A stretch of DNA of 64,000 nt from Marispirochaeta sp. GTDB taxonomy: Bacteria > Spirochaetota > Spirochaetia > JC444 > Marispirochaetaceae. The translations under genes were made by a program, and so were the position numbers. This document shows positions 27,705 to 53,051 of this stretch, in pieces. Every line of letters starts with the position of its first letter. The first letter of the stretch is position 1. The stretch covers positions 640,001 through 704,000 of the forward strand of contig CAXXFF010000003.1 in assembly GCA_963676835.2 (NCBI GenBank), in the 5' to 3' direction. Under the pieces are notes generated by a model. The model saw only the letters and a program-made list of their open reading frames with translations, was not told the DNA's origin and did not search any database.

Positions 27705-27712
27705 CGGTTACC

Positions 27713-29918: not shown

Positions 29919-29923
29919 AGTAT

Positions 29924-30666
29924 ATACTTTGTTTATACGATATTCAAGAAACAATCCATTCCACCTTATGATTATAAATACACTCAAAGAGTATTCAGTC
30001 TTTTTGTTCCAAAGATTTTACTATGACCGATCACCCATTGGGATTACTAAATTCAAACAAGTATCTTCCCATTTTGAACCAGAATAAACATCAAGGATTG
30101 TAAAACGAATGACTGTTTCACCGTCATCTATTTTCTTCGGCAAACGTATCTCCTGAAACTGCGGTGTATCAGTAAGCACTACCTCGAAATCAATATCATG
30201 TTCTTCAATTTGAATCCGCATTTTTTTTATTCGAGAGTTATATTCATATAAATAAGGTTTTGAAAAATCCACATACCCATTAGAAATCAGCAGAAAATCA
30301 ACCGGCCAGTTCCACGTCACGGTTTCAATTTCGAACCATTCGCCAATACCCTGCCCGTCAATACCTTCTACCCAGGGGATGTTATCAGTAGAGGAAAATT
30401 GAATGGTGTTTTGACCATTGTAATCTTTATTGCCTTCAACCAAGGATGAACTACTACGAACTGAAACAACCCTTGGGTTTGCCCCACTCCATCTCAATCC
30501 CTCATCAGAACTAAACAAGAGAAAATTCTTATCAAATAAAAGTAATTTTCGAGGATGCACAAGCATTCCCAGTTTTTCTTTGTAAGTGTAATTTTTATTG
30601 CTGCTCAGGTATAAGTAATCAAAGTTATATTCTTTTTTTGATTGCCAGGTACCACGTTCGTAATAA
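29924..30666. repeat. Direct repeat copy A (~740 bp): 3' two-thirds of the candidate immunity gene plus downstream DNA
   Basis: Aligns by eye with 34667-35409 at offset 4743, with scattered substitutions. Confidence 0.9.
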
Positions 30667-30944
30667 GAGCTATTTGGAAATACAGAATCAGTCTTAATAG
30701 GCTGAGGTAAACTAAATCTTAAGGACGATTCTTTATTTTGGGCATTATCCAAGCGAAACTCATAAAAAGATCGATCAAACAAAAAATTGCCCATATAACA
30801 TGAGTAACCACTTTGGTCGAGCTTAACATAATCAAATCCTCCAAAGTAGCTTAGACGATTATTTAACTCGATTGGTCCTAAATAATCTTCTGCAAGACAT
30901 ACCAAAACCAAATTCAGTATTATGAAAATTATAACTTTATTCAT
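30021..30944 (-). CDS. Exported NADase-type (discoidin-like) glycan-binding domain protein; candidate immunity protein for the orphan Rhs tip
   Basis: Signal peptide; SSSL..., PWVEGIDGQGIGEW, ISNGY...YNSRIKK, ILDVYSGSKWEDTC; AT-rich; 20 nt after the orphan toxin stop. Confidence 0.75.
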   Translation of the reverse strand: MNKVIIFIILNLVLVCLAEDYLGPIELNNRLSYFGGFDYVKLDQSGYSCYMGNFLFDRSFYEFRLDNAQNKESSLRFSLPQPIKTDSVFPNSSYYERGTWQSKKEYNFDYLYLSSNKNYTYKEKLGMLVHPRKLLLFDKNFLLFSSDEGLRWSGANPRVVSVRSSSSLVEGNKDYNGQNTIQFSSTDNIPWVEGIDGQGIGEWFEIETVTWNWPVDFLLISNGYVDFSKPYLYEYNSRIKKMRIQIEEHDIDFEVVLTDTPQFQEIRLPKKIDDGETVIRFTILDVYSGSKWEDTCLNLVIPMGDRS

Positions 30945-30964
30945 AGCTTCTCCTAATTAAATGA

Positions 30965-32065
30965 TCACCTAGTCCAGTTCTTTGGAGTTTCATAACTAAA
31001 ACCCAATATACTCATGCCAAAACTTTCACCTTGTTTAAAACCAATCCCATCAATCGAATTTCTTAACCTTTCATAATCTTTGTTAGAAAAAATTTGGCAC
31101 CCCCAACTCAGAGCATTAGGCCGCTCTGGAAAATTTTTACTACCAGTTGAATGTATCCAAAAATTCCAAATCTTCTCAATTCCTTTTTTCTCAAGACCAT
31201 GGAGTTGTGCTGTTTCACTTGTTATTGACATAGCGTTCTTATAACTATTGGTTTCTCCGATTAGCTCTACTTGATAATCCTCACCAATAGGAAGTGTTGC
31301 GTTTGGATAATTTACATTACTTAAATCATCATCATGCTTTTCCAATTCAGTTTGATCTCCCGACCTATAATTCTTCTCACTCTGAACACCCGCATATTCC
31401 TGAAGGACTTGGTTCCCTACATACAGTTTTGCACTATCATTCTGATCAACTCGACCTTCACCTCGCTGAATTTCCAGGTGCGTTTCCTGTTTAAGGTCTC
31501 TTCCCTCATAAGCAAGTATTGGGTTGCCATTTACATCATCTGCATAAACCTCTGCCAAACCCGTTGGATCCACATACTTCAAAGGATTATTACTACAATA
31601 CCCATACCAGTTCATCCCATCCATCGCCGGGTCACTCGACATCCACCGCCCCCGCTTCGGATCAAGATACCGCGCTCCGTAATAATACAACCCTGTCTCC
31701 TCATCGTACTCCTTTCCGGTAAACCGAAACGGAATCACATCCGCCAGGGGATCAGTCTGCTCCTCCCACAGCTCTCCATAAGGAGTATACTCCAGGTGTT
31801 CATATTTCTCACCTTCATGGTCCGTAACAAACTGGGCACTACCTAAATGATCAGGGTGATAGTAGTAGGTATTTACCCGCTCATAGTCGAAGTTGGTACC
31901 GGACACATTGTCCTTTTCCAGGCTCAACCGCGTGGCTATCCTACTTTCTCCAAGGTATATATGCTTACTCTGCCGAAAATCAGACCCTTCGATTACCCCC
32001 TGAAAAAACTGGTCAAAGTACAGGGTTTCCTCGCTGGCACTAAGGTTATATTTACTGGTGCGCAT
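30965..32065 (-). CDS. Orphan Rhs core plus variable C-terminal toxin domain (L,D-transpeptidase-like)
   Basis: YYHPDHLGS, PFRFTGKEYDEETGLYYYGARY, NPLKYVDPTGL, near-identical to the giant gene; different tip containing FWIH-x14-SWGC. Confidence 0.88.
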   Translation of the reverse strand: MRTSKYNLSASEETLYFDQFFQGVIEGSDFRQSKHIYLGESRIATRLSLEKDNVSGTNFDYERVNTYYYHPDHLGSAQFVTDHEGEKYEHLEYTPYGELWEEQTDPLADVIPFRFTGKEYDEETGLYYYGARYLDPKRGRWMSSDPAMDGMNWYGYCSNNPLKYVDPTGLAEVYADDVNGNPILAYEGRDLKQETHLEIQRGEGRVDQNDSAKLYVGNQVLQEYAGVQSEKNYRSGDQTELEKHDDDLSNVNYPNATLPIGEDYQVELIGETNSYKNAMSITSETAQLHGLEKKGIEKIWNFWIHSTGSKNFPERPNALSWGCQIFSNKDYERLRNSIDGIGFKQGESFGMSILGFSYETPKNWTR

Positions 32066-32226
32066 ATTATCCGAGTCGTACAGATATTTTACCTGAGTAT
32101 TGGTGGTATCAAAGCCTACAAGGCGGTTTTCTTCATCCCAGGTGTAGGTTCGTAACCGTCAATTAAACCCCACCTTATGCCGACATCAATGAATGCCCTA
32201 CAATCCTCCCTTAATGGAGGAATCGC

Positions 32227-32556
32227 ATGGTCAAATATAACCGGGAACAGCAGTGTGAACATCTTAGAAATTGGGAAAAAAGCGGGTTAAGCGGGCAGGA
32301 GTATTGCCGGCAGCACGAAATACCACCCACAACGTTTTACAGCTGGAAAAAAGCCGAAAGGAAACGTGCCGTACAAACCGGAATAGGCTCTGAAACAGCA
32401 GCAGCCCGGTTCATACCAGTAAAAAGCTCTTTTCATCATTTATCCGAAAAAGAAACCATAACCATAAAGTTGCACGATATTGTTATTACTCTGCCGGTAA
32501 CAGCAAATCATGACCAGCTAAAAGCAGTATTAACAGCCTTGAGGGTTTATGAATGA
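32227..32556 (+). CDS. tnpA: IS66 accessory protein TnpA
   Basis: WEKSGLSGQEYCRQHEIPPTTFYSWKK HTH; FIPV. Confidence 0.88.
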   Translation: MVKYNREQQCEHLRNWEKSGLSGQEYCRQHEIPPTTFYSWKKAERKRAVQTGIGSETAAARFIPVKSSFHHLSEKETITIKLHDIVITLPVTANHDQLKAVLTALRVYE

Positions 32557-32900
32557 CCCCAGATTTATCAGCCGTACAGATATTTATCCGGCCAGGCATC
32601 ACTGATATGCGTAAAGCAATCAACGGCTTAGTTGTCATGGTGCAGGACTATATGAATGAAAATCCGTTAAGCGGCAATCTGTTTCTGTTCTGCAACCGCG
32701 AACGACGAATCATGAAGGCATTGTATTGGGACCGGAATGGTTTCTGCCTGTGGCAGAAGAAACTGGAAAAGCATAAATTCCCCTGGCCCGTAACTGAAGA
32801 AGATGCTCTTGCCATTACCCCGGAACAGCTATCGATGCTGTTGAAAGGCATCGATTTCTGGAATGAACATACTACTTTGGAATATTCCCGTGTTTCTTAA
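32553..32900 (+). CDS. tnpB: IS66 accessory protein TnpB
   Basis: TDMRKAINGL, LFLFCNR, YWDRNGFCLWQKKLE, FPWP. Confidence 0.95.
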   Translation: MTPDLSAVQIFIRPGITDMRKAINGLVVMVQDYMNENPLSGNLFLFCNRERRIMKALYWDRNGFCLWQKKLEKHKFPWPVTEEDALAITPEQLSMLLKGIDFWNEHTTLEYSRVS

Positions 32901-32962
32901 AGCATTTTAATGGTGTAAAGGAATTTACAGAGAAAGAGCTGTATGCTAGAATTTTTTTCAGT

Positions 32963-34492
32963 ATGGATGTTGCAGCCCTTCCGAAGGAAGTACAAGACTA
33001 CATTCACTCTCTTGAGACAGCAAACAGTTCCTGGGAACATCGCTACGGTGCCTTGGAGGAGCAGTACAAGTTGCTTCTTCTTCAGAAATTTGGCCGTAAA
33101 AGTGAAAAAGAACAACAGGATGAGTATCAACCGCTGTTGTTCGGACTTGAAGAGAATGGTACTTCGGAGAACGATGCATCAGAGACTTCCGTACCAGTTC
33201 AGTCCCATCCCCGCAGGAAATCCGGCAGAAAACCAATTGATGAAAGCCTTCCCCGGGAAGAGATCATCATTGATATTCCCGAAGATGAAAAACAGTGTGC
33301 CTGCGGCCATGCGCTGGTTCGTATCGGCGAAGAGACCAGCGAGCGCTTACAGGTAATCCCCCCGAAGATGTGGGTAGAACTGATTATCCGTCCCAAGTAT
33401 GCCTGCAAGAACTGTGAAGGCTCCGGGGATGAAGAGAAGCCGGCAGTAAGGGTTGCTGCCCCCCCTGCAAGTATCATCCCTAAAAGCATTGTAACGCCTG
33501 GATTGCTCTCCTTCATCATAGTGAATAAATTTGTAGATCATCTGCCCTATTACCGGCAGGAGAAACGATTTGAGCGGATCGGCATCCACATAAGCCGTCA
33601 GAACATGAGCAACTGGCAGCAGATGACGTATGAAAAGATTGAACCTTTAATTGAGACTCTGAAAATGCATATCCGGTCAGGGCCGGTCATCAACATGGAT
33701 GAAACCCCGGTCCAGGTACACGGAGAACCGGAACGCCCAGACACGGCGAAATCCTATATGTGGCTTGCCCGCGGCGGCCCTCCGGAAAACCCGGGATTGC
33801 TTTACTCATACCGGGAAACCCGCGGGTCCCGACATATTAAAGAACTTCTCGATGGATTCAGCGGCTTTTTACAGACTGACGGCTATGATGCGTATCGTAC
33901 AGCCCTGGCGGGGAATGAACAGATAGTCCATGTCGGCTGCATGGCCCATGTTCGGCGAAAGTTTCATGAAGCTGCAAAGGCCTCGAAGAAAGCAGCAAGT
34001 GCACAGGAAGCATTGAATGCCATCAGGAAACTGTATGGGATTGAAGAGCGTCTTCGCAGTATGGAATTGCCCGAAGACCAGTTTGTTGACCAGCGCAAAT
34101 CTCAGGCGGAACCGGTTTTGCAGAAGTTTAGAACCTGGCTTGAAAAACGCAGTCAGCAGGTTCCTCCTTCGTTATTGCTTGGGAAAGCAATTCAGTACAC
34201 CTTGAACGAATGGGAGAAACTGGTACACTACCTTGATTCGCCTTATCTGACGCCGGACAACAATAGCGCGGAGCAGGCCATCCGGCCATTTGTGCTGGGC
34301 CGAAAGAACTGGTTATTTTCCGGTAGTCCAAAGGGGGCTGAAAGTTCCTGTGCCATGTATTCACTGATTGAGACAGCCAAACAAAATAATGTGAACCCGA
34401 ACGACTACCTGAGACGCGTTTTTGAGGAAGCTCCACTCATGAATGAATCTGATAACTGGGAAAAATTGCTGCCATGGAATATTTCCCTCTGA
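32963..34492 (+). CDS. tnpC: IS66 transposase TnpC
   Basis: FGRKSEK, Zn finger, HLPYYRQ, MDETP, LQTDGY, CMAHVRRKF, DNNSAEQAIRPFVLGRKNWLF, LLPWN. Confidence 0.96.
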   Translation: MDVAALPKEVQDYIHSLETANSSWEHRYGALEEQYKLLLLQKFGRKSEKEQQDEYQPLLFGLEENGTSENDASETSVPVQSHPRRKSGRKPIDESLPREEIIIDIPEDEKQCACGHALVRIGEETSERLQVIPPKMWVELIIRPKYACKNCEGSGDEEKPAVRVAAPPASIIPKSIVTPGLLSFIIVNKFVDHLPYYRQEKRFERIGIHISRQNMSNWQQMTYEKIEPLIETLKMHIRSGPVINMDETPVQVHGEPERPDTAKSYMWLARGGPPENPGLLYSYRETRGSRHIKELLDGFSGFLQTDGYDAYRTALAGNEQIVHVGCMAHVRRKFHEAAKASKKAASAQEALNAIRKLYGIEERLRSMELPEDQFVDQRKSQAEPVLQKFRTWLEKRSQQVPPSLLLGKAIQYTLNEWEKLVHYLDSPYLTPDNNSAEQAIRPFVLGRKNWLFSGSPKGAESSCAMYSLIETAKQNNVNPNDYLRRVFEEAPLMNESDNWEKLLPWNISL

Positions 34493-34527
34493 TTTTTTTC
34501 TCTGGGTGAGGTTTAATTGACGGTTAC

Positions 34528-34650
34528 GTATCAAAGCCTACAAGGCGGTTTTCCTCATCCCAGGTGTAGGTTCTGCAATAGGTGCTTGCCTGGTCGTCCT
34601 CTTCCGTACGCATAAGGGCAAAACCGCGGTTTACGCTGCGAAGGTCTCCG
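34528..34650 (-). pseudogene. Rhs homology fragment (GDLRSVNRGFALMRTEEDDQASTYCRTYTWDEENRLVGFDT)
   Basis: Matches 37793-37915 of the giant gene with 2 visible substitutions; its first 46 bp also repeat on the other side of IS66. Confidence 0.88.
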
Positions 34651-34666
34651 ATTATTGATAGTTTAA

Positions 34667-35409
34667 ATACTTTGTTCATACGGGGATCAAGGAACAATCC
34701 ATTCCATCTTATGATTATAAATACACTCAAAGTGTATTCAGTCTTTTTGTTAGAAAGATGTTACTATGGCCGATCACCCATTGGTATTACTAAATTCAAA
34801 CAAGTATCTTCCCATTTTGAACCAGGATAAACATCAAGGATGGTAAAACGAATTATTGTTTCACCGTCATCTATTTTCTTCGGCAAACGTATCTCCTGAA
34901 ACTGCGGTGTATTAGTTAGCTCTACTTCGAATTCAATATCATGTTCTTCGATTTCAATCCGCATTTTTTTTATTCGAGAGTTATATTCATATAAATAAGG
35001 TTTTGCAAAATCCACATACCCATTAGAAATCAGCAGAAAATCAACCGGCCAGTTCCACGTCTCGGTTTCAATTTCGAACCATTCGCCAATACCCTGCCCG
35101 TCAATACCTTCTACCCAGGGGATGTTATCGGTTGAAGAAAATTGAACGGTATTTTGACCATTGTATTCTTTAATACCTTCAACAAAGGATGAACTACTAC
35201 GAACTGAAACAACCCTTGGGTTTGCTCCACTCCATCTCAATCCCTCATCAGAACTAAACAAGAGATAGTTTTCATCAAAAAGAAGCAGTTTACGAGGATG
35301 CACAAGCATTCCCAGTTTTTCTTTGTAAGTGTAATTATTATTGCTTCGTAGGTATAAGTAATCAAAGTTATTTTCTTTTTTTGATTGCCAGGTACCATGT
35401 TCATAGTAT
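34667..35409. repeat. Direct repeat copy B (~740 bp)
   Basis: Counterpart of 29924-30666. Confidence 0.9.
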
Positions 35410-35687
35410 TCACTCCCTACTGTAAGTCCACTATCTTTCAATGGATCAGGATACACAAAGAAAGCTGACGGGATGCGCTTCTCAGATAAACCTATCATAT
35501 ACTCGTAAAACTTTATATCAAACAAAAAGTCTCCAATAAAATTGGATGTTCCACCTCCATCAAGAAGAACTCGATCAAATGCGCCAAAAAAACTAATACG
35601 TTTCTCTAATCTTACAGGCTCTATATTGTTTTCTGCGACGAGACTAATTGATAGAGATAGCAAAAAAACAAATAAAATTTTTTTCAT
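34764..35687 (-). CDS. Exported NADase-type glycan-binding domain protein; candidate orphan immunity protein
   Basis: Signal peptide; C-terminal ~210 aa nearly identical to 30021-30944, N-terminal ~95 aa divergent. Confidence 0.75.
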   Translation of the reverse strand: MKKILFVFLLSLSISLVAENNIEPVRLEKRISFFGAFDRVLLDGGGTSNFIGDFLFDIKFYEYMIGLSEKRIPSAFFVYPDPLKDSGLTVGSEYYEHGTWQSKKENNFDYLYLRSNNNYTYKEKLGMLVHPRKLLLFDENYLLFSSDEGLRWSGANPRVVSVRSSSSFVEGIKEYNGQNTVQFSSTDNIPWVEGIDGQGIGEWFEIETETWNWPVDFLLISNGYVDFAKPYLYEYNSRIKKMRIEIEEHDIEFEVELTNTPQFQEIRLPKKIDDGETIIRFTILDVYPGSKWEDTCLNLVIPMGDRP

Positions 35688-35720
35688 TCCATTACCGGCC
35701 CCATCACTTTACAGGAATAA

Positions 35721-36635
35721 TTATTCTCTTTGCGAAAATATACTGGTCAGTCTATTGTATTCATCAGCACCCAACTCATGGTGCTCCTTCAAAGACTGAT
35801 CGTCAAGTTCAGAAAAAATACCAGACACCGCTGTATCGTTATATTTATATCCCGGATAAACTTCTATAATTTTTATTTTTATCTTTTTTACTTCCCGCGG
35901 AAAGTATACTGTATGAAATCTTACTTCATCAATAAAACGATATTCTATAGAAAAATTATCATAGTCATCATTCGAAATGATTTTGATTGTTTTTAGTCTA
36001 TTATTTGCTTTGTACAACGCTCGATTTGATAAATCTATATAACCATTCATAATGGAAATATTTTGATATGATTCATTAAATTCAACGTCAATCTCCTCAC
36101 CAATTCCTGGTCCTTCAACACCTTCAACCCAAGGGTAGGTTGATGAGAATGTTCCCCAAAACGGTTTAGAATTGATATTCCAGAATTCTCCATGATAGCC
36201 CATATCAATAACTACGTGTTTTAAATTTTCACTTTTGTATTGAATTAGATTCCCGTTAATCACTTCTTGAAAAAAACTTGTTGCGGTTATATCGCTTATA
36301 ATCGGTTTTACATTTGTATCTACAATAAGTACATCTTTATAGCCCCTGGGCTTCTCGAGATTATTAAAAAGAACGCTTGATCTATCTCCAAGAATAACGA
36401 TATATGTTCTATCCGAAGTTTTTAGATAACCGTAACCATCTTCTTCATAGCTAATATCTTCTTCATTGAAAGAATAGAAGCAATTACAAGCAGAATCAAA
36501 GATATAGCCTTTCCCTGAATAAAAAGCTATTTTTTTGTCAGGGTTAATCTGATCGATAAAGTTATATTCAAATGGTGTTGAGAAAAGATCTGTAATAACT
36601 ATAAACAATATTAAAATATAAGTATTTCTTGGCAC
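35721..36635 (-). CDS. Exported NADase-type glycan-binding domain protein; candidate cognate immunity protein of the giant toxin
   Basis: Starts 1 nt after the toxin stop; hydrophobic N-terminus; PWVEGVEGPGIGE, IMNGY...ANNRLK, EVYPGYKYNDTA; very AT-rich. Confidence 0.75.
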   Translation of the reverse strand: MPRNTYILILFIVITDLFSTPFEYNFIDQINPDKKIAFYSGKGYIFDSACNCFYSFNEEDISYEEDGYGYLKTSDRTYIVILGDRSSVLFNNLEKPRGYKDVLIVDTNVKPIISDITATSFFQEVINGNLIQYKSENLKHVVIDMGYHGEFWNINSKPFWGTFSSTYPWVEGVEGPGIGEEIDVEFNESYQNISIMNGYIDLSNRALYKANNRLKTIKIISNDDYDNFSIEYRFIDEVRFHTVYFPREVKKIKIKIIEVYPGYKYNDTAVSGIFSELDDQSLKEHHELGADEYNRLTSIFSQRE

Positions 36636-36636
36636 T

Positions 36637-42600: not shown

Positions 42601-45600
42601 ATCAGCCTGACGGAAAAGAACTTTTTTATTTATCGATATACCTTCACTGTCAAATACCGGCAAGCGGCAGCTGCCTGCAGAAACATCTGTAACAGTTGTA
42701 TCCGAATTTTCCGGTGAGAAACTCGTTAGCGCTGTTTCACTCACCAATCCTTCGTCGGTGACTTCAAAATCACCATTGGCATTATAGATAATTCCCCTCT
42801 CAAGCTCAGTCCAGGTCCGGATGCCAAGATCCGATAAAGATGAAATAACAACTGCAGTATCCTCAGGCTTATCAAGAATGTCCTTTATCACATAGTTACT
42901 GTCGTCATCAGAGTAGAATGGAAAAACCTCATCCATCGCACGGTAACGGCCGCATGCTAAAGTGAATAATGCCGTTTGATCAACGTTAAAATTTTGCTGC
43001 AGTGAATACCAGTTATTTAAATCTGAATCTAAGTACTCTACAAATAATTCAGTAATATCATTACGTATCCCTGCATCCTGAGAAGCCAGGAAAATTGCAA
43101 ATTCATCTTCACTTAACAGAATAATTCCCTGTATGCCGGGGTCAATAGTATCAAGGATTGAATCCGGAATATCATGAAGAGCATCAGTTTGCTGTAGATA
43201 TATAAGCAGGCCGCTTTCAAACCCCGGGCCTTTCGGCATATAAGTATCCAAAAACTCATCATATTCAAAAGAATCTGTCATAGAGAGAAGATCAGCCTCG
43301 CTTAGCCCAGAAGAGGCTGCCAGCCAGTCAGTGCTGCTTACGGGAAAAAGAGAGGAAACCCCATACTGCTCCCCGGAAATTACAGAAGGGATAACAGTCT
43401 CTTCGAACAACGCCTCCGGTATCGATTGAAGCAAGGAAGTCTCACCTTCCAAATTAAAAAATCGCGTAATACCATCTTCAACAACTTCACAATGAAACCC
43501 ATCACCTGTTTCGGAGACTGTTCCGGCAGGTGTTGTACCTGATTCATCATGCTTAAGAATTTGTGGTTCTGCTCCTGCATTTAAAATGTATGAATAGGAT
43601 GGATTTTGAGTATCTTCCTCCAGAAAAACCTGGTCCAGTAGAAAACTACCATTTTCAATTAACACCTTTTCACTGCCATTCCAGTCAGCCTCAAGTCGAA
43701 TTTCCGGAGAAAGATCCTCGTCAGTAACCGTAGCAGTAAGCAGACGAAACTCACCGGTAGAATCCGGATAGCCCTGAGGCAAATCTTCTGCATCCGGGTA
43801 CACCAGCGATCGTAAGGCATCCATACCGATAAGTGATCGCCACGGATCATCATATTTACGAATAACTGCAAGTCCGGCTGAATCTGTACAATAATAGACC
43901 TTCTCTTCCGGAGAATAGGTAAAAGAATAAAAAAGTGTATAACGATCAGACGCAGAAATCTGGTGAGTAAAGCCAACGGGAGTAATATTGTAGTCAGGTG
44001 AGACTAAATTAAGCAGAGGTTCAAACATGACTGCAGGAACTCTGGTAAAGTTAAGGTAACAATTTCTTATTAACACATCCTGCAGAGTGGGATTGGCTTC
44101 TACAAGTGCTTTCCAGTTAGAACGACGGTTATAAACCCTGACATTCTGCTCATCGATTTGTTCAAAGGTGGAGGTGTAGAGGGGATCAAATCCCGAATCA
44201 CCATCAGGTAGGCTTCTGTAAGTCTTTAATGGAATGTCCACAAACGTGCTGAGGTCCTCCATTGATTCCAGCAATTTGATAGAGGAGTAGTGAATAGTGG
44301 AGTTCCATAAAACATCATCTCCTCTCGGATCTCCTTTTGTATCAAGATGAAAATATATTGGCTCTCCTTTATTAATATGAACATTTTCAATCTCCAGAGG
44401 GTTTGTACTTACTCCACCTGGCAAAATATCACTGGCAGCTTCTATCCCTCCCGGCGCCCGCACTACAGCAACAGCATCACAATAACTGCTGAACCCGGTT
44501 TCCACAGGAGTAAATGAATTGGACACATTAACGGTTCCGGACCTGTAGGCCTTCCATTTTCTGACTGGCTCCTGAATAAAATAGCCTTTCTCCAGGCTGG
44601 CGCCTTGCTTGCTCGAAACCTCGGCTATTTCACTGCTGTCAGAAGGAGTTTCGATTATCTTTGAAATAAATCCTTTACCCTCATTATTCAGATAATATCC
44701 GTCAAAATCGGTGGCTGCAAAATCTACAAAACCATCTCCATTCAGATCAGAAAAACTGCTTCTTGTTTTTGATTGCCCCCACTGCCAGGTAGTCGATCCG
44801 CTTAAAGGAATAACTCCAGCGGAAAGTCCGAAATTGTATGATGAAGATCGGACCTCATTAACATTTCGCGACAGAGAACCAAAATCTATAGCCTTAGCTC
44901 CAGTGTTGAAAACACCTTCATCCTGAGGGAAACACACCGCATCCTTTCCTCTGGACAATACGACATCTGACAAACCATCTCCGGTTAAGTCCATAAGTGA
45001 CAACTCAGTTCTGGCTTTGGAAGTATTTGCATCGGCACGTAATCCAAAATGGGCATACCGTTCCCACTTAAGGCCGCCAAAGAAATCAATTTTGGGCCCA
45101 TACAGACCAATCCCCGTGTACAGGCTTACACCTACTCCGGAAGTCCGGTCTTCCTGCAGAGCTGGCACTTTGGCAGGATCTTCAAGCACAATGGACCGCT
45201 CCCCTTCCCCGAAACCTTTATACCCGTCACCCTGAACCTCCGGCTCATAGTAATCAAAGCGGTAGCAGTAAAACTCACTGCCGGAGCCGTCGCTTTCGGA
45301 AAGCTCCGCCAACTGGGTCTGGCCGAAAATATTCTGTCCATAGGTAAAATCATAACGCCGGAACATGAGACCGTCATAAGAAACCTCAACACCTTGTAAC
45401 AGGCGGGTCAGCTTGGAGACAAACTTGCCCCGGGCATCGCTGCGACGGTCCGGCCTGGCTTCGGGAGAAGAGTCCATGTCAAAATGAATACGGTAGAGCC
45501 CGGTCGAGCCGTCTCCGGTATGGCCGGAATAACGGATATCGGAAAGATACGCTGTCTTGTTTGCAAGGTCTTTATCGTAGGAATAATCCGCCGTATTACC

Positions 45601-46707
45601 GTTGGAATCAATAATCCTGCTCAAATACCAGTGGTAGATTCTGCTGCGGTCACCCGCATCCGGACCCGTCCAGCCGTCGCCGGTGCCGTAGATACGCTTC
45701 GTTCCGCCCTTGTCGGTAACCTCCCAGCGGCGGTCATCATTCACATACCAGAGTATCCGCTCAAAGCTCCCCTCTTTCCGCCGGATGTACTTCATGGCAC
45801 CGTCTTCCATTTCGCCGCTGAAGAGCAGCTCCTCTCCGTTCAACAGAAAAGTATCTTCCGTATCGTAATCGGGAAGGCCGAAACGGGTATCGATGGAAAC
45901 CGACGGTACACTTATGTCAAAGCCCCGGCCCATCCAGCTGTTCTGCTGTTCCGATGAGTAGGAAACAGACAGCTGAGGCGTTGCGGAACCCCGCCCTTTG
46001 GGAATGCGTAAAGGCAGTGAAAAGCCTGCGCCCCCCATGGTGTCCGCCTTAAGGCCCTGCACCCGGGGAACCTCCGCCGTTGGGTCGGCTGCTTTGAGGT
46101 CTTTTATACTGTTGACATTAAACTCCACCGCCTGAGGCCCTTCCGGCAAAGTCAGGGTGGAGGTAATCATATCGGTAAAATGGGTGGTAAGGCTGGTAAT
46201 AACTGCGGCATCATGGTCGATACCGTAACGTTCAAGCTTGTTCCATTTTCCCGGAGCCTCATCATAATACCAAGTGTAAAGATTGGAGAGAGCTGTTTCC
46301 GAAGCAAGTATCTGCCTGTCGAAGGGAAGGGAGACTTTAACCGCCCGGGAAAAGGTCTGTCCGTCGGGGAGAAAACGGTATCCTGCCGCCCCGGAGGTTA
46401 CATTGGCCATACCGCTGTTAAGCCGGGCAATATTGCTAAGCTTTTCTACGGTAATGACGGTAGTTTTGCTTACTGCCCCGGAGGGGACCTCCATGGAGAC
46501 CTCGGGCGAGCGGAACACTCCTCCTTCCCCGGGAGTAACGGTAAACTCGGCAATAACCTCATTGCCCGGTTCCTCACTCACCTGTACCGCCGGCGTGGTT
46601 GGAGAGAGAGAAACCTCTCCGGGTTGGGCGAAAACAGGGGGAGCAACGGAGCTCAAAAAGAACAGCTCCAGAAGGAAAAAGCTTATTAGCCGGTTTCTTA
46701 TATTCAT
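36637..46707 (-). CDS. Giant TcB/TcC-like SpvB-FG-GAP-TcdB_midN-Rhs polymorphic toxin with Sec signal peptide and ZU5-like N-terminal domain
   Basis: Signal ending PPVFA|Q; SpvB motif GGAGFSLPL...PQLSVSYSS...WMGRGFD; six DxxGD(G/R)xxD repeats; GLLKTIHTPFGGSTELSY; many YD repeats; Rhs core ending DPTGL; ~200-aa AT-rich tip. Confidence 0.92.
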   Translation of the reverse strand: MNIRNRLISFFLLELFFLSSVAPPVFAQPGEVSLSPTTPAVQVSEEPGNEVIAEFTVTPGEGGVFRSPEVSMEVPSGAVSKTTVITVEKLSNIARLNSGMANVTSGAAGYRFLPDGQTFSRAVKVSLPFDRQILASETALSNLYTWYYDEAPGKWNKLERYGIDHDAAVITSLTTHFTDMITSTLTLPEGPQAVEFNVNSIKDLKAADPTAEVPRVQGLKADTMGGAGFSLPLRIPKGRGSATPQLSVSYSSEQQNSWMGRGFDISVPSVSIDTRFGLPDYDTEDTFLLNGEELLFSGEMEDGAMKYIRRKEGSFERILWYVNDDRRWEVTDKGGTKRIYGTGDGWTGPDAGDRSRIYHWYLSRIIDSNGNTADYSYDKDLANKTAYLSDIRYSGHTGDGSTGLYRIHFDMDSSPEARPDRRSDARGKFVSKLTRLLQGVEVSYDGLMFRRYDFTYGQNIFGQTQLAELSESDGSGSEFYCYRFDYYEPEVQGDGYKGFGEGERSIVLEDPAKVPALQEDRTSGVGVSLYTGIGLYGPKIDFFGGLKWERYAHFGLRADANTSKARTELSLMDLTGDGLSDVVLSRGKDAVCFPQDEGVFNTGAKAIDFGSLSRNVNEVRSSSYNFGLSAGVIPLSGSTTWQWGQSKTRSSFSDLNGDGFVDFAATDFDGYYLNNEGKGFISKIIETPSDSSEIAEVSSKQGASLEKGYFIQEPVRKWKAYRSGTVNVSNSFTPVETGFSSYCDAVAVVRAPGGIEAASDILPGGVSTNPLEIENVHINKGEPIYFHLDTKGDPRGDDVLWNSTIHYSSIKLLESMEDLSTFVDIPLKTYRSLPDGDSGFDPLYTSTFEQIDEQNVRVYNRRSNWKALVEANPTLQDVLIRNCYLNFTRVPAVMFEPLLNLVSPDYNITPVGFTHQISASDRYTLFYSFTYSPEEKVYYCTDSAGLAVIRKYDDPWRSLIGMDALRSLVYPDAEDLPQGYPDSTGEFRLLTATVTDEDLSPEIRLEADWNGSEKVLIENGSFLLDQVFLEEDTQNPSYSYILNAGAEPQILKHDESGTTPAGTVSETGDGFHCEVVEDGITRFFNLEGETSLLQSIPEALFEETVIPSVISGEQYGVSSLFPVSSTDWLAASSGLSEADLLSMTDSFEYDEFLDTYMPKGPGFESGLLIYLQQTDALHDIPDSILDTIDPGIQGIILLSEDEFAIFLASQDAGIRNDITELFVEYLDSDLNNWYSLQQNFNVDQTALFTLACGRYRAMDEVFPFYSDDDSNYVIKDILDKPEDTAVVISSLSDLGIRTWTELERGIIYNANGDFEVTDEGLVSETALTSFSPENSDTTVTDVSAGSCRLPVFDSEGISINKKVLFRQADSLSDYSDLNLIDYSALDNLILAKFPESLPSSSEGDYLNNLSKKSYSRESFAGGVHGWFYGVWTGYYDWDAEKLVEVPEYEEGNGEVPSLEVLQSSDPVDPPWFLAMSPNYSEEDDSYKITEDGRVYKELVPENAWIGSNSSYSEAEWDETGTMVFNEYTFAPYLQEDRYHPARLGGDLYYSAPTSSTLCGQGQLGDLRKSKNDNVDINLSAFMNLIGGSRNTGNSWMYKDFIDINGDRYPDVVQFPSDGGTSVTVQYGSIASDNTFTLQNETGLSARLNYMTKSSNECYGFGSSPMAVIGGIMQTYKDGKVESNQITATDGSSGASVSINGTTSSNIQNIGFRDINGDGLPDQLERTGSGSSSVALNTGNGFDPQTQWNGGLYKVLLPEIFESQQESEGIEYSNAGSFGGSVSTGVTAGAIGFGASGSETGSVNRTIYRMLDMNGDGLPDQVAKMPDEGFFEVCFNLGDTFAEEPVKIYRPDWSGINFAGMMTASICNEITSAVRNFTGIDISALPDFSIDLGGLDFIDKFGAGLNPFNVDDTLEYSAGLSLGVNGTVTFQIPVLWLILFEMTPGISGSYVHTSTSLKFQDITGDGLPDHVLRVPGENRIRVMESALGTVGLLKTIHTPFGGSTELSYKRVGNTVEMPQSRWVPETITMKDGIEGDTERPGAHEFVTGFEFEQGVYDRTERMFCGFTTVRTLRYENYDSEVPANTAIASVQEDTYAVDPAYDDNFFRRGLLIKRAVYDVHPLDPAAQEYSESSMTYSYIPFASGSVIPRLESETETVFDQETGARLDKLMEYTLYDSYGNVRELTDAGLVGDPEDDMRAEITYADLDADAYMHAHPETILVYDAEDNLLRKRIGRYFADTGNLRQLEQYYTRDDYTLHTLAYDGFGNLTSVIDPRGCETAVVYDSSVHTFPLTIGTGNSIISGTPSYSTSMQWDYKYGKELQLTDQNLNSQYREYDSFGRMARVRSPYEPDSGDMPAVAFQYRTESFPWTAVTVNKISHDTASSEDMLTATFADGLGRIIQTAKEGEVRDGNDTLYGWNCSGLIAQDGAGRTVQEGQTVFLETADSQPVSGGLNTVLPALAGLSLPTIKTYDPLDRVKHIVFPDDPKDPDDDAEMQMEYGIEGNTMRELTIDPKQNRTETLKNIRGQVAELRMLDSGSRILKKAEYSYSPLGELQQSLEHQLETGLTYPVTYQYDLAGRRTSVESYDAGKIVFRYDDSGNLTEKIDSNLRASGRSIRYDYDGLNRLIRVNYPKTTATEYAYGSPVDTADNLAGRLITRSDASGTIEYAYGKLGEVSETIRTLNRLDQTLDAETASTSFVYDYLGRLEEITYPDGETVAYTYNTGGQVQSVTGITKGQSTTYIEDIGYDTYGQRVYMKYGNSVETHYTYNPYRRWLDSIETGKEGAARRYQNISYSFDTVGNITGYTNDVYGYTTTQTYGYDALNQLTGADGTYRHHPDGIDVTTSIYSQDYVYDSLGNFQQKNSSQRYVPSTTPKGALNYEQEYSYYEGTPHRVQWIGNIYYSYDKNGNVIEERKGGPSAEAEAGESTLSVDGDLRSVNRGFALMRTEEDDQASTYCRTYTWDEENRLVGFDTTNTQVKYLYDADNMRTSKYNLSASEETLYFDQFFQGVTEGSDFRQSKHIYLGESRIATRLSLEKDNISGTNFDYERVNTYYYHPDHLGSAQFVTDHEGEKYEHLEYTPYGELWEEQIDPLADVIPFRFTGKEYDEETGLYYYGARYLDPKRGRWMSSDPAMDGMNWYGYCSNNPLKYVDPTGLADVIGEHVKTGEIITDRQYEPTKFTAEVFRSRSSYESKYGELDTQGKDFLVISAETILGEKGKHFVGGLQTVDIQTEGNRDQPISGSQLQGNTIAPGKFDMEYKSTSGSIPGVVLEIQNTSTIDGTVIGRDGNAVGGGANRGGRWLYHGNASLGNPEVDYNNKGSDGCFIPSSSEFNDSIDFMESWGIQEGTIINGLLKEF

Positions 46708-46756
46708 GTACTACTCCAGTTTTTAATTCACATTTTTTATCAGTTTACGTTTGTCG

Positions 46757-47428
46757 CTATAATTCGGTAAAAATCACATGCACCGATTCCTGAGGGAAAC
46801 TGTCTTCAGGAGAGATAACCACCAGATACCCGTTAGCCCCGCTCTGGTGCAGAGGCGGTTCCTCATCGAGAAATGTTGTTTCCAGCACATCGTTCAGATA
46901 GAGCTGATAGTTGCTTTCGCTGTTATCCCAGACAACCCGGATGCGGTTGCCTTTGTTGTAACCGTCAAGCAGGTTGTCCGAATCGGTCCAGGGAAAAAAC
47001 GGAAAGAATTCATCATCGACAACTTCTCCCACAATGTATTCAGCCGATGCATTTATCAGAACCACCAGCATGGTTTCCCCTGTATCCGGGTCGCCTGAGT
47101 CATAGTGGCAGAGAACAATTCCGTATCCTGCGACATCAGACCCGGAAACCTTATTACACTTTACTTCCCGTTCTGAAAAAGGATCTGCACTAGTACCGTT
47201 TAAAGCCCACAGGGTGTACCCCAGGGGGCTCCACCAGGCGGTATCGTTGGTAAGAAAAACAACTTCCCCCGGCCCACCGCCGTCAACAAAAAGCTCCCCC
47301 ACCTCTGCGATATCTTCACCGCCGGTACCGGAAGATGTGGCAGGTGTCGGGGTTACCGGACACCCGGTCAAAAGAACTGATAGAATAACCAGACCGAGGC
47401 AGAGACATCCTTCAATACGATTCTTCAT
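46757..47428 (-). CDS. Lipoprotein, beta-sandwich (concanavalin/DUF1080-like) domain suspected
   Basis: Lipobox VLLTGC; GYGIV...NRIRVVW...YQLYLND pattern; starts 1 nt after the upstream stop. Confidence 0.7.
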   Translation of the reverse strand: MKNRIEGCLCLGLVILSVLLTGCPVTPTPATSSGTGGEDIAEVGELFVDGGGPGEVVFLTNDTAWWSPLGYTLWALNGTSADPFSEREVKCNKVSGSDVAGYGIVLCHYDSGDPDTGETMLVVLINASAEYIVGEVVDDEFFPFFPWTDSDNLLDGYNKGNRIRVVWDNSESNYQLYLNDVLETTFLDEEPPLHQSGANGYLVVISPEDSFPQESVHVIFTEL

Positions 47429-47429
47429 A

Positions 47430-48251
47430 TCAGCCGTCCGAATGGGGAATGGGCGAATCGCTCACAAATACCAGGGTGTATTCGATAACCGTTCCACCGG
47501 CTAACGGAGATTCATCTATGCAGACATCGGGATCGGGAAAAATCTTGAAGCGGAAAGCTGCCTCGGCAAACTGCTCATTATCGATGCAAAAAGCCTGGTC
47601 GCTGGTTATCTGCTCCGAAGCCCCTGCACCTTCCCGGAGATACCGGAGACAGGAACCATCCACTCCTATGGCGGGACTCTGCTGAACAACCTTCAATGTA
47701 AGGCGGTGTCCCGGATCGATGACAACATAAAACCAGTCATCATCCTGTATCCAGCGCATTCCCCCGCTCTGCTGATAGTAGTAGCTATTGCAGCTTAAGC
47801 TCACCTCGTTGCAGGGAAAATAGAAGGCAGAATCTTTGGTGTCGTTCGACTCATGGAGATCCTTGATACACTCATTGCCGATTCCCAGGGCGGGTTCCGA
47901 CGGGCCGAACTCGCTGTTTCCCTTAAGCTTGGCAAGGGTATACAGGTAGCGTTTTTCATCTTCAACGGCAGTATCGTTGTAGCTCCTTCCTGTGCCCTGG
48001 TATACTGTTGAATAGACCGGAACAACGTCGGTATCCTCCGCCCGGCGGAGGATGTACTCGTCAGCAGCTTCATCATCATCCCAGGAAACCTGAACAGAAA
48101 GTTCCTGCTCAAAGGAGATCGCATATGGCGGAGAAATTTCCGGATCCCGGGCAAGCCGGTTCATGGCGTCCATAAGGTCACCGTCGCAGCCGTAGATAAT
48201 TATGCAGAGAACCGTCAGCAAAGTAAGCCGGGAAAGAAATACCTTGTACAT
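47430..48251 (-). CDS. Lipoprotein with fibronectin-III-like and PPC-like segments
   Basis: Lipobox IIYGC; VSWDDD...YILRR...VYQG...YNDT...YLYT; ESNDTKDSA...DDDWF; AGGAG upstream. Confidence 0.7.
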   Translation of the reverse strand: MYKVFLSRLTLLTVLCIIIYGCDGDLMDAMNRLARDPEISPPYAISFEQELSVQVSWDDDEAADEYILRRAEDTDVVPVYSTVYQGTGRSYNDTAVEDEKRYLYTLAKLKGNSEFGPSEPALGIGNECIKDLHESNDTKDSAFYFPCNEVSLSCNSYYYQQSGGMRWIQDDDWFYVVIDPGHRLTLKVVQQSPAIGVDGSCLRYLREGAGASEQITSDQAFCIDNEQFAEAAFRFKIFPDPDVCIDESPLAGGTVIEYTLVFVSDSPIPHSDG

Positions 48252-48317
48252 TTTTGCTCCTGTTTTTTTGTTTTCTTTTTTCTATTCATCTCTTCATTTC
48301 TACTTTTACCAGATTCT

Positions 48318-49361
48318 TTATTGCTTCAATTGGCCGATGCGGTAGTGCCCGGACAAGCCCAGAACAAGGGCAGCCTGCACGGGAGAGTAGAACGCAAACT
48401 CCAGAGCAGACCGGACTCCGATAGTCCAGGAATCAGTCAGCCCGTAGCGGTAGCCAAGCTGCAGAAAACAGCCCGCTGCGGTGTTGAAGGTGGAGTAGGC
48501 ACCGTAATAGAGCCGGTCCTGAAAGAGCAGATCGAACTGCATGCTCAGCCCGCCGCCAAGGTCTATAAACTGATTCTCCGCCAGCCCGGCACTCATGGTA
48601 AGGGGAAGATTCAGCCTGAAGCTGTGCAGAATAAAGCTCTCGTAATCCGCATCATTGACCGCAAGCGAATAGGCCAGGGTTAAGCCTGTCTGAAACTCCC
48701 AGGGAACATCCCCCCGCATAAACAGGGGCTGCACCGGGGTAAGCAGAAGACCTGACTCAAGCCGCGCTATCCCGGTGGATGTTTCCCCCCAGTCCCCTCC
48801 CGCGGGGGTCCAGTAATTTAAGTACAGAGGCAGAACGAAGATATTCTTCTCAGGAGCCGGCATGGGATCATAGGCACTCATGCCCAGGTCGGTATACAGA
48901 TAATCCAGGATTTTCCTCGTCAGCTCCTGCACCAACCGGTCATAATGATCCGCCGTATCCCGGGCAAGAAACAGTATCTCGATCTTCCGTGTTTCATGGT
49001 TATACATTCTCAGTTCGCAATCCCAGCCTATTTCCGTTCGGGTAAAAAAGCCGAAGAGCAGATAGGTAATGCCCCGGTCAGCACATAAGCGGGCAGCCTC
49101 CAGGTATCCTTCCGGAGAGTCCGCCCCTTGAGAGAGAGATTGAATCTGAGCAATGCCCTCATGATCTGTAATCTTAATGCTTTTCAGCAGATCGCCTGTA
49201 AAATCTCCACTGTCTATTTTTTCAACCCGATCCTCTGTCAGATTTCGGATGGATACCGGCGCCAGATAGATATCCAGAGCATGAAGTTGTAACAAGGAAC
49301 AAAGCAGAAATAATAGGCATAGAATTAAACGCCTGAGAGATGCTCTTGTATAATCAGCCAT
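48318..49361 (-). CDS. Exported protein with N-terminal alpha/beta (TolB-N/CsgG-like) domain and C-terminal outer-membrane beta-barrel
   Basis: Signal ending LHA|L; YLLFG...ELRMYN; alternating strands such as LQLGYRYGL...WTIGVRSALEF...LGLSGHYRI. Confidence 0.6.
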   Translation of the reverse strand: MADYTRASLRRLILCLLFLLCSLLQLHALDIYLAPVSIRNLTEDRVEKIDSGDFTGDLLKSIKITDHEGIAQIQSLSQGADSPEGYLEAARLCADRGITYLLFGFFTRTEIGWDCELRMYNHETRKIEILFLARDTADHYDRLVQELTRKILDYLYTDLGMSAYDPMPAPEKNIFVLPLYLNYWTPAGGDWGETSTGIARLESGLLLTPVQPLFMRGDVPWEFQTGLTLAYSLAVNDADYESFILHSFRLNLPLTMSAGLAENQFIDLGGGLSMQFDLLFQDRLYYGAYSTFNTAAGCFLQLGYRYGLTDSWTIGVRSALEFAFYSPVQAALVLGLSGHYRIGQLKQ

Positions 49362-50733
49362 GTACAGCAGCTCCAGTTAATTGAAGTAGTTCCTGCGCCT
49401 GCACAAGCTCACTGCTGTCTGATTCTGCAGAGGAATCAATAATGCCCGAAAGAATAGTCCGGGCCTCACTGTTTTTTCCCCCGTCCAGAAGCAGCCGGCA
49501 TTTTATGAGCAGCAGGGCATTGCTCCGGTAATACCCGAGACCGGTGTTCACATACCTCCAGGCATCTTCGGATGTTCCATTTGTATAATTGATTTCGGCT
49601 ATGAAGCAGCAGCAGTCGGCCGCTTTTTCCAAGTCTTCCCGGGTCTGCAGGCTCAGTGATTCAAGAGACTTTTCTCTGGTATGAACCGCCTGCTTAAACT
49701 TATATTGGCAGAGGTAGCAATCAGACAAAAGCTTGAGAACTTCATAAGATCCTTGCAGAGACTTACGGGTAAGAATACCTTCAGCGTCGGCATAGTTCTC
49801 AAGCAGAATTGCCGTACGGGCTGCACCTATCAGAGATGGTCGATGTTCAGGATTAATTTCCATACTTCGGGAAAACAGTTCAAAAGCCTCGAGGTGATCT
49901 TCCCTCTGCTCCTTCAACAGAGCCGCATAATAAATATAGAGAAAGTTCTCAGGGTCCTTTCTTCGAAGCAGAACCATCTCATACTCTGCCCGCGGAAGAT
50001 CTCCCATCTGCACACAGACTGTCACCAGCTTATCCAGGTATTCAGTACTGTCCGGGTCCAGGTCCCTCAGGCGGTGGTAATAGCGGTAAGCTGATTCCCA
50101 CTCCTGCTGTTCCACAGAAACCTCCGCAAGTACTTTTAAAGCAAGATGATTTGCCGGATCAGCAGCCAGCACTGCCCCCATGGAAGCTGCCACCCGTTTG
50201 TAATTTGTCGAATCCATGGGATTTGCATAAAACAGTGCCGCATTGAAATAGAGCTGTGCCGGTATTGATTCGGGAGCAATGGCAAGAACATCCGACATGG
50301 TAGATGCACAGAGAATAAACTCTTTCTCTTTAAACAGAAGGATTCCGTCATCAACCATGGTTTGCAGGAATGCTGTACCAGCAGGCGAAACACCAGATGA
50401 TTCGCGCACAGCCATGGCAAGAGCTCGCTGATCCTGACGGAGGGCATAGATACTGGAATTCATCTGCCGTTCCAGCAGACTCACCTTATTTTTGAGCTGG
50501 AACTGGGCTGTTTTTATCTCGACAAAATAATCCAGGTTTTGAGAAAAACCGGAATTAAGACTGGAAAGCAGCCGGTCGGTATTCTCTGCACTCAGTTCCA
50601 GGATTGCCTGCTGCTGCTCGTTCTGTGTCTGCAGAAAACAGAGCAGTGACTCATTTATCTCGGAGGTCCTATGCAGAATCAGGCCATAGGAGGTGATGAT
50701 TGTAGTTAAAATTAGAGCAGACAGCTTCTTCAT
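49354..50733 (-). CDS. Tetratricopeptide-repeat protein with N-terminal anchor and coiled coil
   Basis: Repeated helical units ending LAIAP, LAADP, RDLDP, RRKDP, MEINP; 8-nt overlap with the next gene. Confidence 0.8.
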   Translation of the reverse strand: MKKLSALILTTIITSYGLILHRTSEINESLLCFLQTQNEQQQAILELSAENTDRLLSSLNSGFSQNLDYFVEIKTAQFQLKNKVSLLERQMNSSIYALRQDQRALAMAVRESSGVSPAGTAFLQTMVDDGILLFKEKEFILCASTMSDVLAIAPESIPAQLYFNAALFYANPMDSTNYKRVAASMGAVLAADPANHLALKVLAEVSVEQQEWESAYRYYHRLRDLDPDSTEYLDKLVTVCVQMGDLPRAEYEMVLLRRKDPENFLYIYYAALLKEQREDHLEAFELFSRSMEINPEHRPSLIGAARTAILLENYADAEGILTRKSLQGSYEVLKLLSDCYLCQYKFKQAVHTREKSLESLSLQTREDLEKAADCCCFIAEINYTNGTSEDAWRYVNTGLGYYRSNALLLIKCRLLLDGGKNSEARTILSGIIDSSAESDSSELVQAQELLQLTGAAVHG

Positions 50734-52803: not shown

Positions 52804-53051
52804 AGGATGTTTCCCCCTCTGCTTTAAGTATATAAAGCCCACAACGAAGTGCAACATTTTGCCCGGTAATTAAAGGAGAACTTACACTGAGTTAGATTTT
52901 AAATACCCCGGGGCTTGAAGGAGAAATGGAATCTCCCTCGTGTATACATTCTCCCCCTCTCCGTTTAGTATAAGCCCTGCTCCTGTACAACCCGCTGTAA
53001 ACAAAGGCAAACAGGACAATCACCCGACAGAATCCTTCAGAAAAGGCGTAT

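Follow-up and report, generated by a model that had tools for sequence, protein, structure and literature searches.

Positions 30021..50733 of a 64,000-nucleotide stretch of a Marispirochaeta sp. genome (contig CAXXFF010000003.1, positions 640,001 to 704,000; hereinafter the window) carry a locus built around a gene for a 3356-residue Rhs protein, hereinafter designated the giant. Judged from sequence, the locus very probably encodes an antibacterial polymorphic toxin. With moderate confidence we further propose that the giant is exported by Sec and then by type II secretion machinery (T2SS, encoded by gsp genes), that it attacks peptidoglycan, and that discoidin-domain proteins confer immunity to it. 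The genome of the window, G000, comprises 4.43 Mb in 4 contigs and is 97% complete; G and L labels denote the genomes and loci compared. An earlier note on this DNA counted ten genes. Coordinates and profile scans confirm its gene order, span and co-orientation, and the count is nine co-oriented minus-strand genes plus one IS66 element:

49354..50733, minus strand: TPR gene (accessory gene 1), 459 aa; Pfam TPR_19, E 7.7e-14; N-terminal hydrophobic segment
48318..49361, minus strand: barrel gene (accessory gene 2), 347 aa; predicted outer-membrane protein
47430..48251, minus strand: lipo1 (accessory gene 3), 273 aa; predicted lipoprotein, N-terminal domain FN3-like
46757..47428, minus strand: lipo2 (accessory gene 4), 223 aa; predicted lipoprotein, directly before the giant
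36637..46707, minus strand: giant toxin gene, 3356 aa; assigned by Pfam, PDB and motif evidence
36637..37242, minus strand: tip 1, giant residues 3156-3356; L,D-transpeptidase-like motif
35721..36635, minus strand: imm1, exported discoidin-domain protein; PF25302 E 1.1e-18, NF047619 E 4.1e-26
34764..35687, minus strand: imm2, orphan discoidin-domain protein; passes the PF25302 and NF047619 cut-offs
34528..34650, minus strand: start of the cassette homology arm, a copy of giant codons ~2931-2972, 98% identical
32152..34527, plus strand: IS66-family element (tnpA, tnpB, tnpC); Pfam IS66 families, inside the cassette arm
30965..32151, minus strand: orphan cassette (Rhs core and tip 2); orphan open reading frame (ORF) 30965-32065, tip 2 30965-31558
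30021..30944, minus strand: imm3, exported discoidin-domain protein; PF25302 E 6.1e-22, NF047619 E 2.8e-28

Intergenic gaps are 1-66 bp, except around IS66, and the TPR gene overlaps the barrel gene by 8 bp.

The giant and its tips

The giant contains SpvB, FG-GAP, FG-GAP_3, TcdB_toxin_midN and RHS_repeat domains above the Pfam cut-offs, and Rhs_assc_core is also matched. In the PDB, it matches the fused TcdB2-TccC3 structures (E 1.9e-37). Specifically, SpvB spans residues 224-381, TcdB_midN spans residues 1952-2071, and a variable region lies at about 750-1400; YD/RHS repeats and the Rhs core follow. The Rhs core contains D3130 and a PxxxxDPTGL motif at residues 3146-3155 (DPTG, 3151-3154). 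The Sec-type signal peptide claimed in the earlier note stands as a leader-like segment by hydropathy script, with a basic start, a hydrophobic core and VFA-Q at residues 25-28. Residues ~55-180 include an HF[T/S] motif (176-178 in the giant) that is invariant in 8/8 aligned homologues. HF/S-type motifs are self-cleaving. The Pfam match to ZU5 is weak, in 3/8 giant homologues (best E 0.0015), and the window's own giant is not matched.

Compared with close relatives, the ends of the shell are 50-79% identical, residues 750-1400 are 28-41% identical, and the tip is less than 20% identical. Eight of 35 relatives' tips match Pfam above cut-off, namely M23, NlpC/P60, Ntox21, HNH, M91 (two) and DUF6973 (two), and a crude script detects a hydrophobic leader in 28/35 genes directly downstream of the tip. 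The GC content of tips and imm genes is 31-40%, versus ~51% for conserved shell parts. Thus, the leader, the SpvB-FG-GAP-RHS order, the variable tip, the downstream immunity-like gene and the orphan cassette, all features of the TcdB/TcaC toxin class, are found here, and the immunity assignment rests on gene position and tip coupling. Tip diversity, the silent cassette and the contrast between shell and tip identity agree with the earlier description of a polymorphic toxin with cassettes.

Tip 2 is predicted to have an L,D-transpeptidase fold. Its AF2 model, built from a six-row alignment (pLDDT 73.2), was compared with 48,161 chains by VIA-align; the top 20 matches all belong to the YkuD/LD-transpeptidase family (Z 6.1-10.5), and rank 21 has Z 3.1. 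The best match is Pgp2 (Z 10.5, rmsd 3.8, 128 residues aligned), other top matches include Csd6 and Ldt, and Tlde1a (7uma) gives Z 6.5 with rmsd 3.6 over 110 residues. On the same model, Foldseek reached no match below E 0.001; its best-ranked rows are nevertheless of the LD-transpeptidase family.

Tip 2 contains the motif His136...S-W-G-Cys154 (spacing 14), and tip 1 contains His3303...S-D-G-Cys3323 (spacing 16), whose His and Ser-Asp-Gly-Cys are invariant in 5/5 aligned sequences. In the pattern HX14-17(S/T)xGC, His, Gly and Cys are invariant in 6/6 sequences aligned; the motif of Tlde1 is HX14-17(S/T)HGC, as given in the available part of PMC9638812. An hhalign comparison of tip 1 with the tip 2 family is weak (probability 23, E 9e-4) and places His on His and Cys on Cys. 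Tip 1 is predicted to be L,D-transpeptidase-like from motif and weak alignment, the fold model being of tip 2; its GC content is ~40%, against ~51% in the conserved shell. The Pfam scan matched neither tip, and a PDB profile search by sequence with the window tips gave a chance match only. Of the wall-targeting activity proposed earlier, the part concerning tip 2 gains a fold model, and tip 1 shares the His/Cys motif only.

LD-transpeptidase folds are usually housekeeping enzymes, as with the top matches Pgp2, Csd6 and Ldt, adhesins often contain discoidin and FN3 domains, and the giant's middle is variable. The giant could on these grounds be an adhesin or a surface wall-remodelling protein with a non-toxic tip. 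We consider this improbable, because relatives swap the tip for nuclease, RNase and amidase domains, each with a different small gene after it, and because turnover of toxins and immunity genes is typically marked by silent cassettes and by tip/immunity pairs of low GC. Moreover, Zhang 2012 (PMC3482391), in the part available, counts the LD-peptidase tip class as toxin.

Over 605 bp, the Rhs core of the orphan cassette shares 92.7% DNA identity with the giant. An internal ATG serves as start of the orphan ORF, and no ribosome-binding site precedes it. The homology arm of this silent cassette thus measures 123 + 605 bp with IS66 in between, and IS66 must have inserted in the arm because a 123-bp Rhs-core fragment remains at 34528-34650. 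The direct repeat of this IS66 is 46 bp (32106-32151 / 34528-34573); by script, four of eight other copies checked have the usual 8-bp repeat and four have none. G000 has only two Rhs cores, both at this locus.

Discoidin-domain candidate immunity

The products of imm1, imm2 and imm3 all score above the PF25302 and NF047619 cut-offs. imm1 has a hydrophobic leader and a GC content of 31.5%, and is likely the cognate immunity gene of tip 1; imm3 is likely that of tip 2. imm2 and imm3 are 74.5% identical overall, with ~40% identity over the first 100 columns and ~90% thereafter, which suggests that the giant once bore a tip-2-like toxin.

The His...GC motif occurs in 4/52 Rhs tips of the loci examined, and 3/4 are directly followed by a discoidin gene (two in the window, one in G121); the fourth is at a locus without a downstream ORF. 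None of the motif-less tips among the 52 is directly followed by a discoidin gene. In the reverse direction, 30 discoidin loci were returned, 29 of them outside G000; directly upstream of the discoidin gene, these 29 have a motif-bearing gene in seven cases, a looser motif in two, an M23-like gene in one and no tip in 19. A metagenome contig found via tip 2 (L169) likewise has a discoidin gene next to the tip. Thus, the 3/4 motif tips and 7/29 loci are consistent with the discoidin-type immunity suggested by the earlier note, and we predict that discoidin-domain genes encode periplasmic immunity to LD-transpeptidase-type tips. The evidence concerns coupling, not binding. Complex prediction of tip 2 with imm3, in two runs with controls not folded, scored 0.00 and speaks neither for nor against pairing.

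NF047619 is present in 58/151 genomes of the class (even draw). For this common, so far unassigned spirochaete family, the proposed role would be immunity against LD-transpeptidase-type toxins. G000 has three more discoidin-domain genes without an upstream tip (C2:1526280-1526630, C2:1433761-1434339 and C4:340261-340830), which are possibly orphan immunity genes.

The accessory block and the route of export

The four genes preceding the giant form a conserved block. TPR-barrel-lipo1-lipo2-giant is intact in at least G001 (twice), G003 (twice), G004, G005, G013 and G035, at differing chromosomal sites, and in G231, G294, G110, G289, G207, G312 and G250 the giant is preceded by the barrel gene, lipo1, lipo2 and a first gene of smaller size. 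The TPR product, 459 aa in the window, is 190-330 aa in several relatives. A search with the giant N-terminus found 72 GTDB loci, some of which repeat contigs of the earlier relative sets, so that counts are not additive. Twenty spirochaete-type loci have 10 kb of upstream flank; two of these, labelled 'uncultured bacterium' and 'Clostridia', were counted by gene content. All four block genes are present in 18/20 and both lipoproteins in 19/20, and none of the four was found within 10 kb upstream of non-spirochaete giants. Where lipo1 and giant homologues carry an organism name, it is Marispirochaeta, Treponema or another spirochaete. The synteny comparison thus bears out the earlier claim that the giant has its own accessory genes, and the conserved TPR/eight-strand barrel/two-lipoprotein block looks new.

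The AF2 model of the barrel protein (pLDDT 79.6, pTM 0.51) has an N-terminal alpha/beta domain and eight long C-terminal strands. Foldseek matches it to OmpA (E 2.7e-7), TolB (E 4.4e-7) and OmpW (E 1.2e-6); the protein has no Pfam match of its own. An eight-stranded barrel is too narrow for protein passage, and the barrel as an export pore was dropped on this model. lipo1 has Cys22 after a hydrophobic leader, invariant in 10/10 aligned sequences, and weakly matches the Fn3 protein 3mpc (E 0.025); 273 representatives were found at E<=1e-30. In lipo2, Cys23 is invariant in 10/10, and nothing matched in Pfam or PDB. A scan of genome contigs with lipo2 alone found no relatives. lipo2 is an unclean marker: nine of the weaker matches examined (E ~1e-9 to 1e-27) are solitary, with one more beside lipo1 without a giant. 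Three proteins of 1,100-3,000 aa from spirochaete metagenome bins (P0008, P0009 and P0010) consist of many lipo1-like repeats, with no Pfam match above cut-off.

In most relatives, the block and the giant are linked to gsp genes or a lone secretin. gspD/E/F/G occur within 10 kb upstream of the giant in 17/20 spirochaete-type loci (L093 and L095 being one genome). The layouts vary: the operon is collinear with the block, divergent (G004, L103, G545), reshuffled (L082, G501, G487) or interleaved (G526). G545 has in one run a gsp operon, the block, a 3495-aa giant with an LD-type tip as in the window, and a discoidin gene. In G000, a secretin and a T2SSE ATPase lie in an orthologous ten-gene gsp operon (C1:834791-844787) on another contig than the giant locus; GspD, E, F and G families are in one operon in G000 and are Pfam-confirmed in G004. 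Both genomic traits of a T2SS substrate, a Sec-type leader and a gsp operon in the genome, are thus present for the giant of G000.

In the even draw of 151 genomes, Secretin_N is found in 12/17 lipo1 carriers versus 16/134 non-carriers. Four of the five Secretin_N-negative carriers have a secretin by other searches; the remaining one is G011, where the block is broken. A Fisher test was set aside, since related genomes do not count as independent and 8/17 carriers had gone into the profile. Of the nine carriers outside the profile, seven have Secretin_N and the other two have an adjacent gspD. In genus g35, four full-block genomes (G289, G207, G312, G250) have a 400-aa secretin between lipo1 and lipo2 (L042-L044, L047), which lacks the N-terminal domains and is the sole secretin of each genome. 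In the other five g35 genomes no secretin was found, GspG is absent in all nine, and GspE was not found in the three secretin-only g35 genomes searched.

In a secretin-core tree (n=45), giant-linked secretins fall in four spirochaete groups, with mutual relations not separated by the tree, and one distant non-spirochaete group. The GspD of G000 is 62% identical to the giant-adjacent GspD of G004 and lies in the same supported clade (96/99). At four non-spirochaete loci (L122, L127, L142, L147), a different secretin type adjoins the giant. No gsp neighbours were found with spirochaete-built profiles, which distant secretins could escape, at any of the 16 actinobacterial/chloroflexal giant loci with full flank, as expected because Sec alone suffices there. 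Taken together, the linkage makes it likely that the giant is exported by the T2SS of the cell, and rather probable that its export needs a secretin.

In the proposed mechanism, the leader would take the giant across the inner membrane by Sec, with the signal peptide cut near residue 27, and the giant, once in the periplasm, would adopt a cocoon fold like that of TcB-TcC. A cut after L3155 would be made by the Rhs aspartates D3130/D3151, leaving the 201-aa tip inside the shell, and the ZU5-like domain may cleave itself at HF/T. The T2SS secretin would then pass the folded particle through the outer membrane, with the barrel, the TPR protein and the two lipoproteins acting as loading or surface-tethering factors, not as a pore. 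The target would be a neighbour, probably a related spirochaete, whose peptidoglycan the tip may trim or miscross-link, like Tlde1. The silent cassette could supply a replacement tip and immunity gene through recombination in the Rhs core.

Several points weigh against this model. The gsp operon is apart from the block in G000, G001 and G003, and most linked (and most collinear) loci belong to one Treponema clade, so the counts overstate independence. About 20/41 genomes have a secretin but lack a TcdB_midN giant, which means that the T2SS also exists apart from the giant. A folded shell of ~370 kDa is large for a secretin. The standard T2SS piston cannot work in the secretin-only genomes, which lack GspG and, in the three searched, GspE; export there would have a different driving force, or else the secretin serves another purpose. 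G121 (a single contig, 99% complete) encodes a pair of full-length giants and lipo2, and no match for secretin, GspG, barrel or lipo1. In G011 no secretin was found either; its barrel is truncated and its giant is in pieces. As to the toxin, the second His of the Tlde1 motif is replaced by Asp in tip 1 and by Trp in tip 2, 20/29 discoidin loci have no LD-transpeptidase-type tip upstream, and the passage of the tip from the shell into the target periplasm is outside what the evidence explains.

The retention of full-length giants in G121 without a secretin or barrel match, together with the size of the folded shell, would fit an antibacterial giant that undergoes no active export across the outer membrane and is released by vesicles or lysis; exported immunity is needed under either route. 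This is unlikely, in that it leaves unexplained why gsp linkage recurs in several layouts and with two unrelated secretin groups.

Alternatively, the four accessory proteins may be an export and display route of their own, and the gsp operon may co-travel on an island or export the lipoproteins only. The block is indeed tighter to the giant than gsp is, with four genes in 18/20 loci and adjacency even where the gsp operon is distant (G000, G001, G003), and GspE/GspG are missing in the secretin-only genomes. We regard this as doubtful. In its model the barrel has eight strands, as in OmpA/OmpW, and is too narrow for a protein; a secretin is retained inside the block where the rest of the T2SS is lost; non-spirochaete giants without the block adjoin gsp genes at four loci; and gsp operons also adjoin another Rhs family, whose accessories differ. 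The "self-contained" weapon of the earlier note is not supported, because the barrel is eight-stranded and the block is tied to a gsp operon or lone secretin in most relatives, with the G000 operon on another contig.

The earlier report of no TcA, VgrG, Hcp or PAAR in the window extends to the whole of G000. VgrG, Hcp, sheath and PAAR, parts of type VI secretion (T6SS), were not found in G000 (PF05954, PF05638, PF05943, PF05488; controls positive), and the sheath is present in 0/23 spirochaete-type carrier genomes versus 2/31 other genomes. TcA_TcB_BD (PF18276), the sole TcA family searched, is present in 0/23 spirochaete-type carriers, including G000, versus 6/31 others. Given its clear homology to TcB and TcC, the giant might be the BC part of a eukaryote-directed Tc-like toxin with a TcA-like partner too divergent to detect. 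This is highly improbable: the positives worked in the TcA search that gave 0/23, peptidoglycan-type tips and immunity-like genes indicate bacterial targets, and classic Tc loci have no immunity genes according to the available part of Song 2021 (PMC7861908). As to type IX secretion (T9SS), its sorting domain Por_Secre_tail was not found on the giant in the Pfam scan; a search of G000 for GldN was blank, and its positive control was equally silent.

Of 20 other gsp operons from spirochaetes, two being truncated at contig ends, 7 adjoin a DUF6531-type Rhs giant. Members of this second family (L158, L159, L161, L164, L165, L167, L168) have ~1,950 aa, a leader, and DUF6531 and RHS domains, and lie beside or within gsp operons. 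Several are preceded by genes for a DUF5780 lipoprotein and a clostripain-family protein, and the tips of this family include NlpC/P60 and LD-transpeptidase-like motifs. A broader reading, which we offer tentatively and rate at somewhat less than even chances, is that the spirochaete T2SS is mainly an interbacterial weapon launcher for folded 2,000-3,500-residue Rhs cocoons of two shell families, with family-specific lipoprotein/barrel adaptors; one genus would have retained a lone 400-residue secretin in the toxin operon, without pseudopilus or ATPase.

Other cassettes lie close to gsp genes. L060 (G231:C1) has a second giant and three more tip cassettes inside the gsp operon, between gspG and downstream genes. 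In G000, a non-Rhs cassette array (C1:822300-833200; L058, L059) is head-to-head with the gsp operon; similar arrays are at C1:555600-562600 and L149:15461-20000. In the array, repeated tip-like ORFs (HxH peptidase-like motif by eye, no Pfam match) alternate with SH3-bearing genes and exported ones. It is split by IS21, no full-length carrier was identified, and the same array is in the same place in G002. In Bacteroidota, a gene for 640-650 aa directly precedes the giant (L113:7083-9020, L135:1377-3335, L134:7308-9230) and has a T9SS sorting domain in 2/3 cases; it may serve as adaptor to another machine in the outer membrane.

Relation to described systems

The toxin itself belongs to a described class, of which it is a spirochaete-specific variant, and the "undescribed" of the earlier note is not supported for the toxin class because Zhang 2012 (PMC3482391) defines that class and lists its LD-peptidase tips. 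In the available part of that paper, toxins with signal peptide, ZU5, SpvB, propeller and RHS make up the TcdB/TcaC class, spirochaetes included, and Tox-LD-peptidase is listed with TcdB/TcaC, ZU5 and RHS, with Imm16/Imm57 as immunity. The giant shares with this class the leader, SpvB, an integrin-like propeller, RHS repeats and a predicted LD-peptidase tip; the ZU5 domain, common but not required in the class, is weakly indicated through the giant's homologues. The same part of the paper treats SpvB and propeller as an export pathway of its own, uses 'T2SS' for the general secretory pathway, names no secretin and lists no spirochaete LD-peptidase tips; it mentions neither the four-gene block nor the gsp linkage nor discoidin immunity.

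The giant resembles the BC subcomplex of Tc (ABC) toxins (TcdB2-TccC3, YenB-YenC2) in SpvB, TcdB_midN, RHS core and DPxG autoprotease motif. Unlike Tc BC, it is a single natural polypeptide with a leader, ~900 extra residues and no TcA found, and its locus has immunity-like genes, cassettes and bacterial-wall tips. WapA-type Sec-exported YD/Rhs toxins of Gram-positives have a signal peptide, a YD shell, a polymorphic tip and downstream immunity, and use no injection machine. The giant shares these traits; In contrast, no outer membrane stands in the way of WapA-type toxins, and they lack a TcB half. The tips resemble Tlde1/Tox-LD-peptidase effectors in the LD-transpeptidase fold (tip 2 model) and the His...Ser-x-Gly-Cys motif. 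Unlike Tlde1, they are part of an Rhs shell protein instead of being T6SS-loaded, the second motif His is replaced, the partner is a discoidin-domain protein instead of Tldi1, and the tip 2 fold is closer to Pgp2/Csd6 carboxypeptidases. Compared with the usual Gsp T2SS, the proposed cargo is a shell toxin of 3,000+ residues, and four genomes have only a 400-aa secretin and no GspG.

Among related reports, each available in part, T2SS deletion in Plesiomonas weakened E. coli killing with Rhs unmentioned (PMC9743648), Song 2021 set tcB-tcC fusions aside (PMC7861908), and in Staton 2021 (PMC8049484) two species of treponeme have RHS/YD genes, and a complete secretion system was not seen. In the literature covered, neither a gsp-Rhs link nor the four-gene block nor discoidin immunity was found described; most subscription papers are outside this scope, and Additional File 1 of Zhang 2012 may list such neighbourhoods. 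Thus, the conserved four-gene block, the gsp/secretin link and the coupling of LD-transpeptidase-type tips to discoidin genes look new, the last as a candidate new immunity family.

The class definition of 2012 left open how such a toxin exits a two-membrane cell without TcA or T6SS, and the gsp linkage offers a concrete answer. If the model is true, interbacterial Rhs delivery joins the jobs of the T2SS, which raises the question of how so large a particle passes a secretin, and spirochaetes gain a competition system where the treponeme survey (PMC8049484, available part) saw no complete secretion system.

Outside the locus, a co-oriented chemoreceptor gene (50788-52857) lies upstream of the block and is not conserved next to it in the relatives' loci compared. 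A mazE-mazF pair (29407-29987) follows imm3; mazF is interrupted by an IS21-type element (26964-29458) that has many identical copies across G000. The longest ORF of G000 (C2:198172-211866) encodes 4,564 aa and has a leader-like start.

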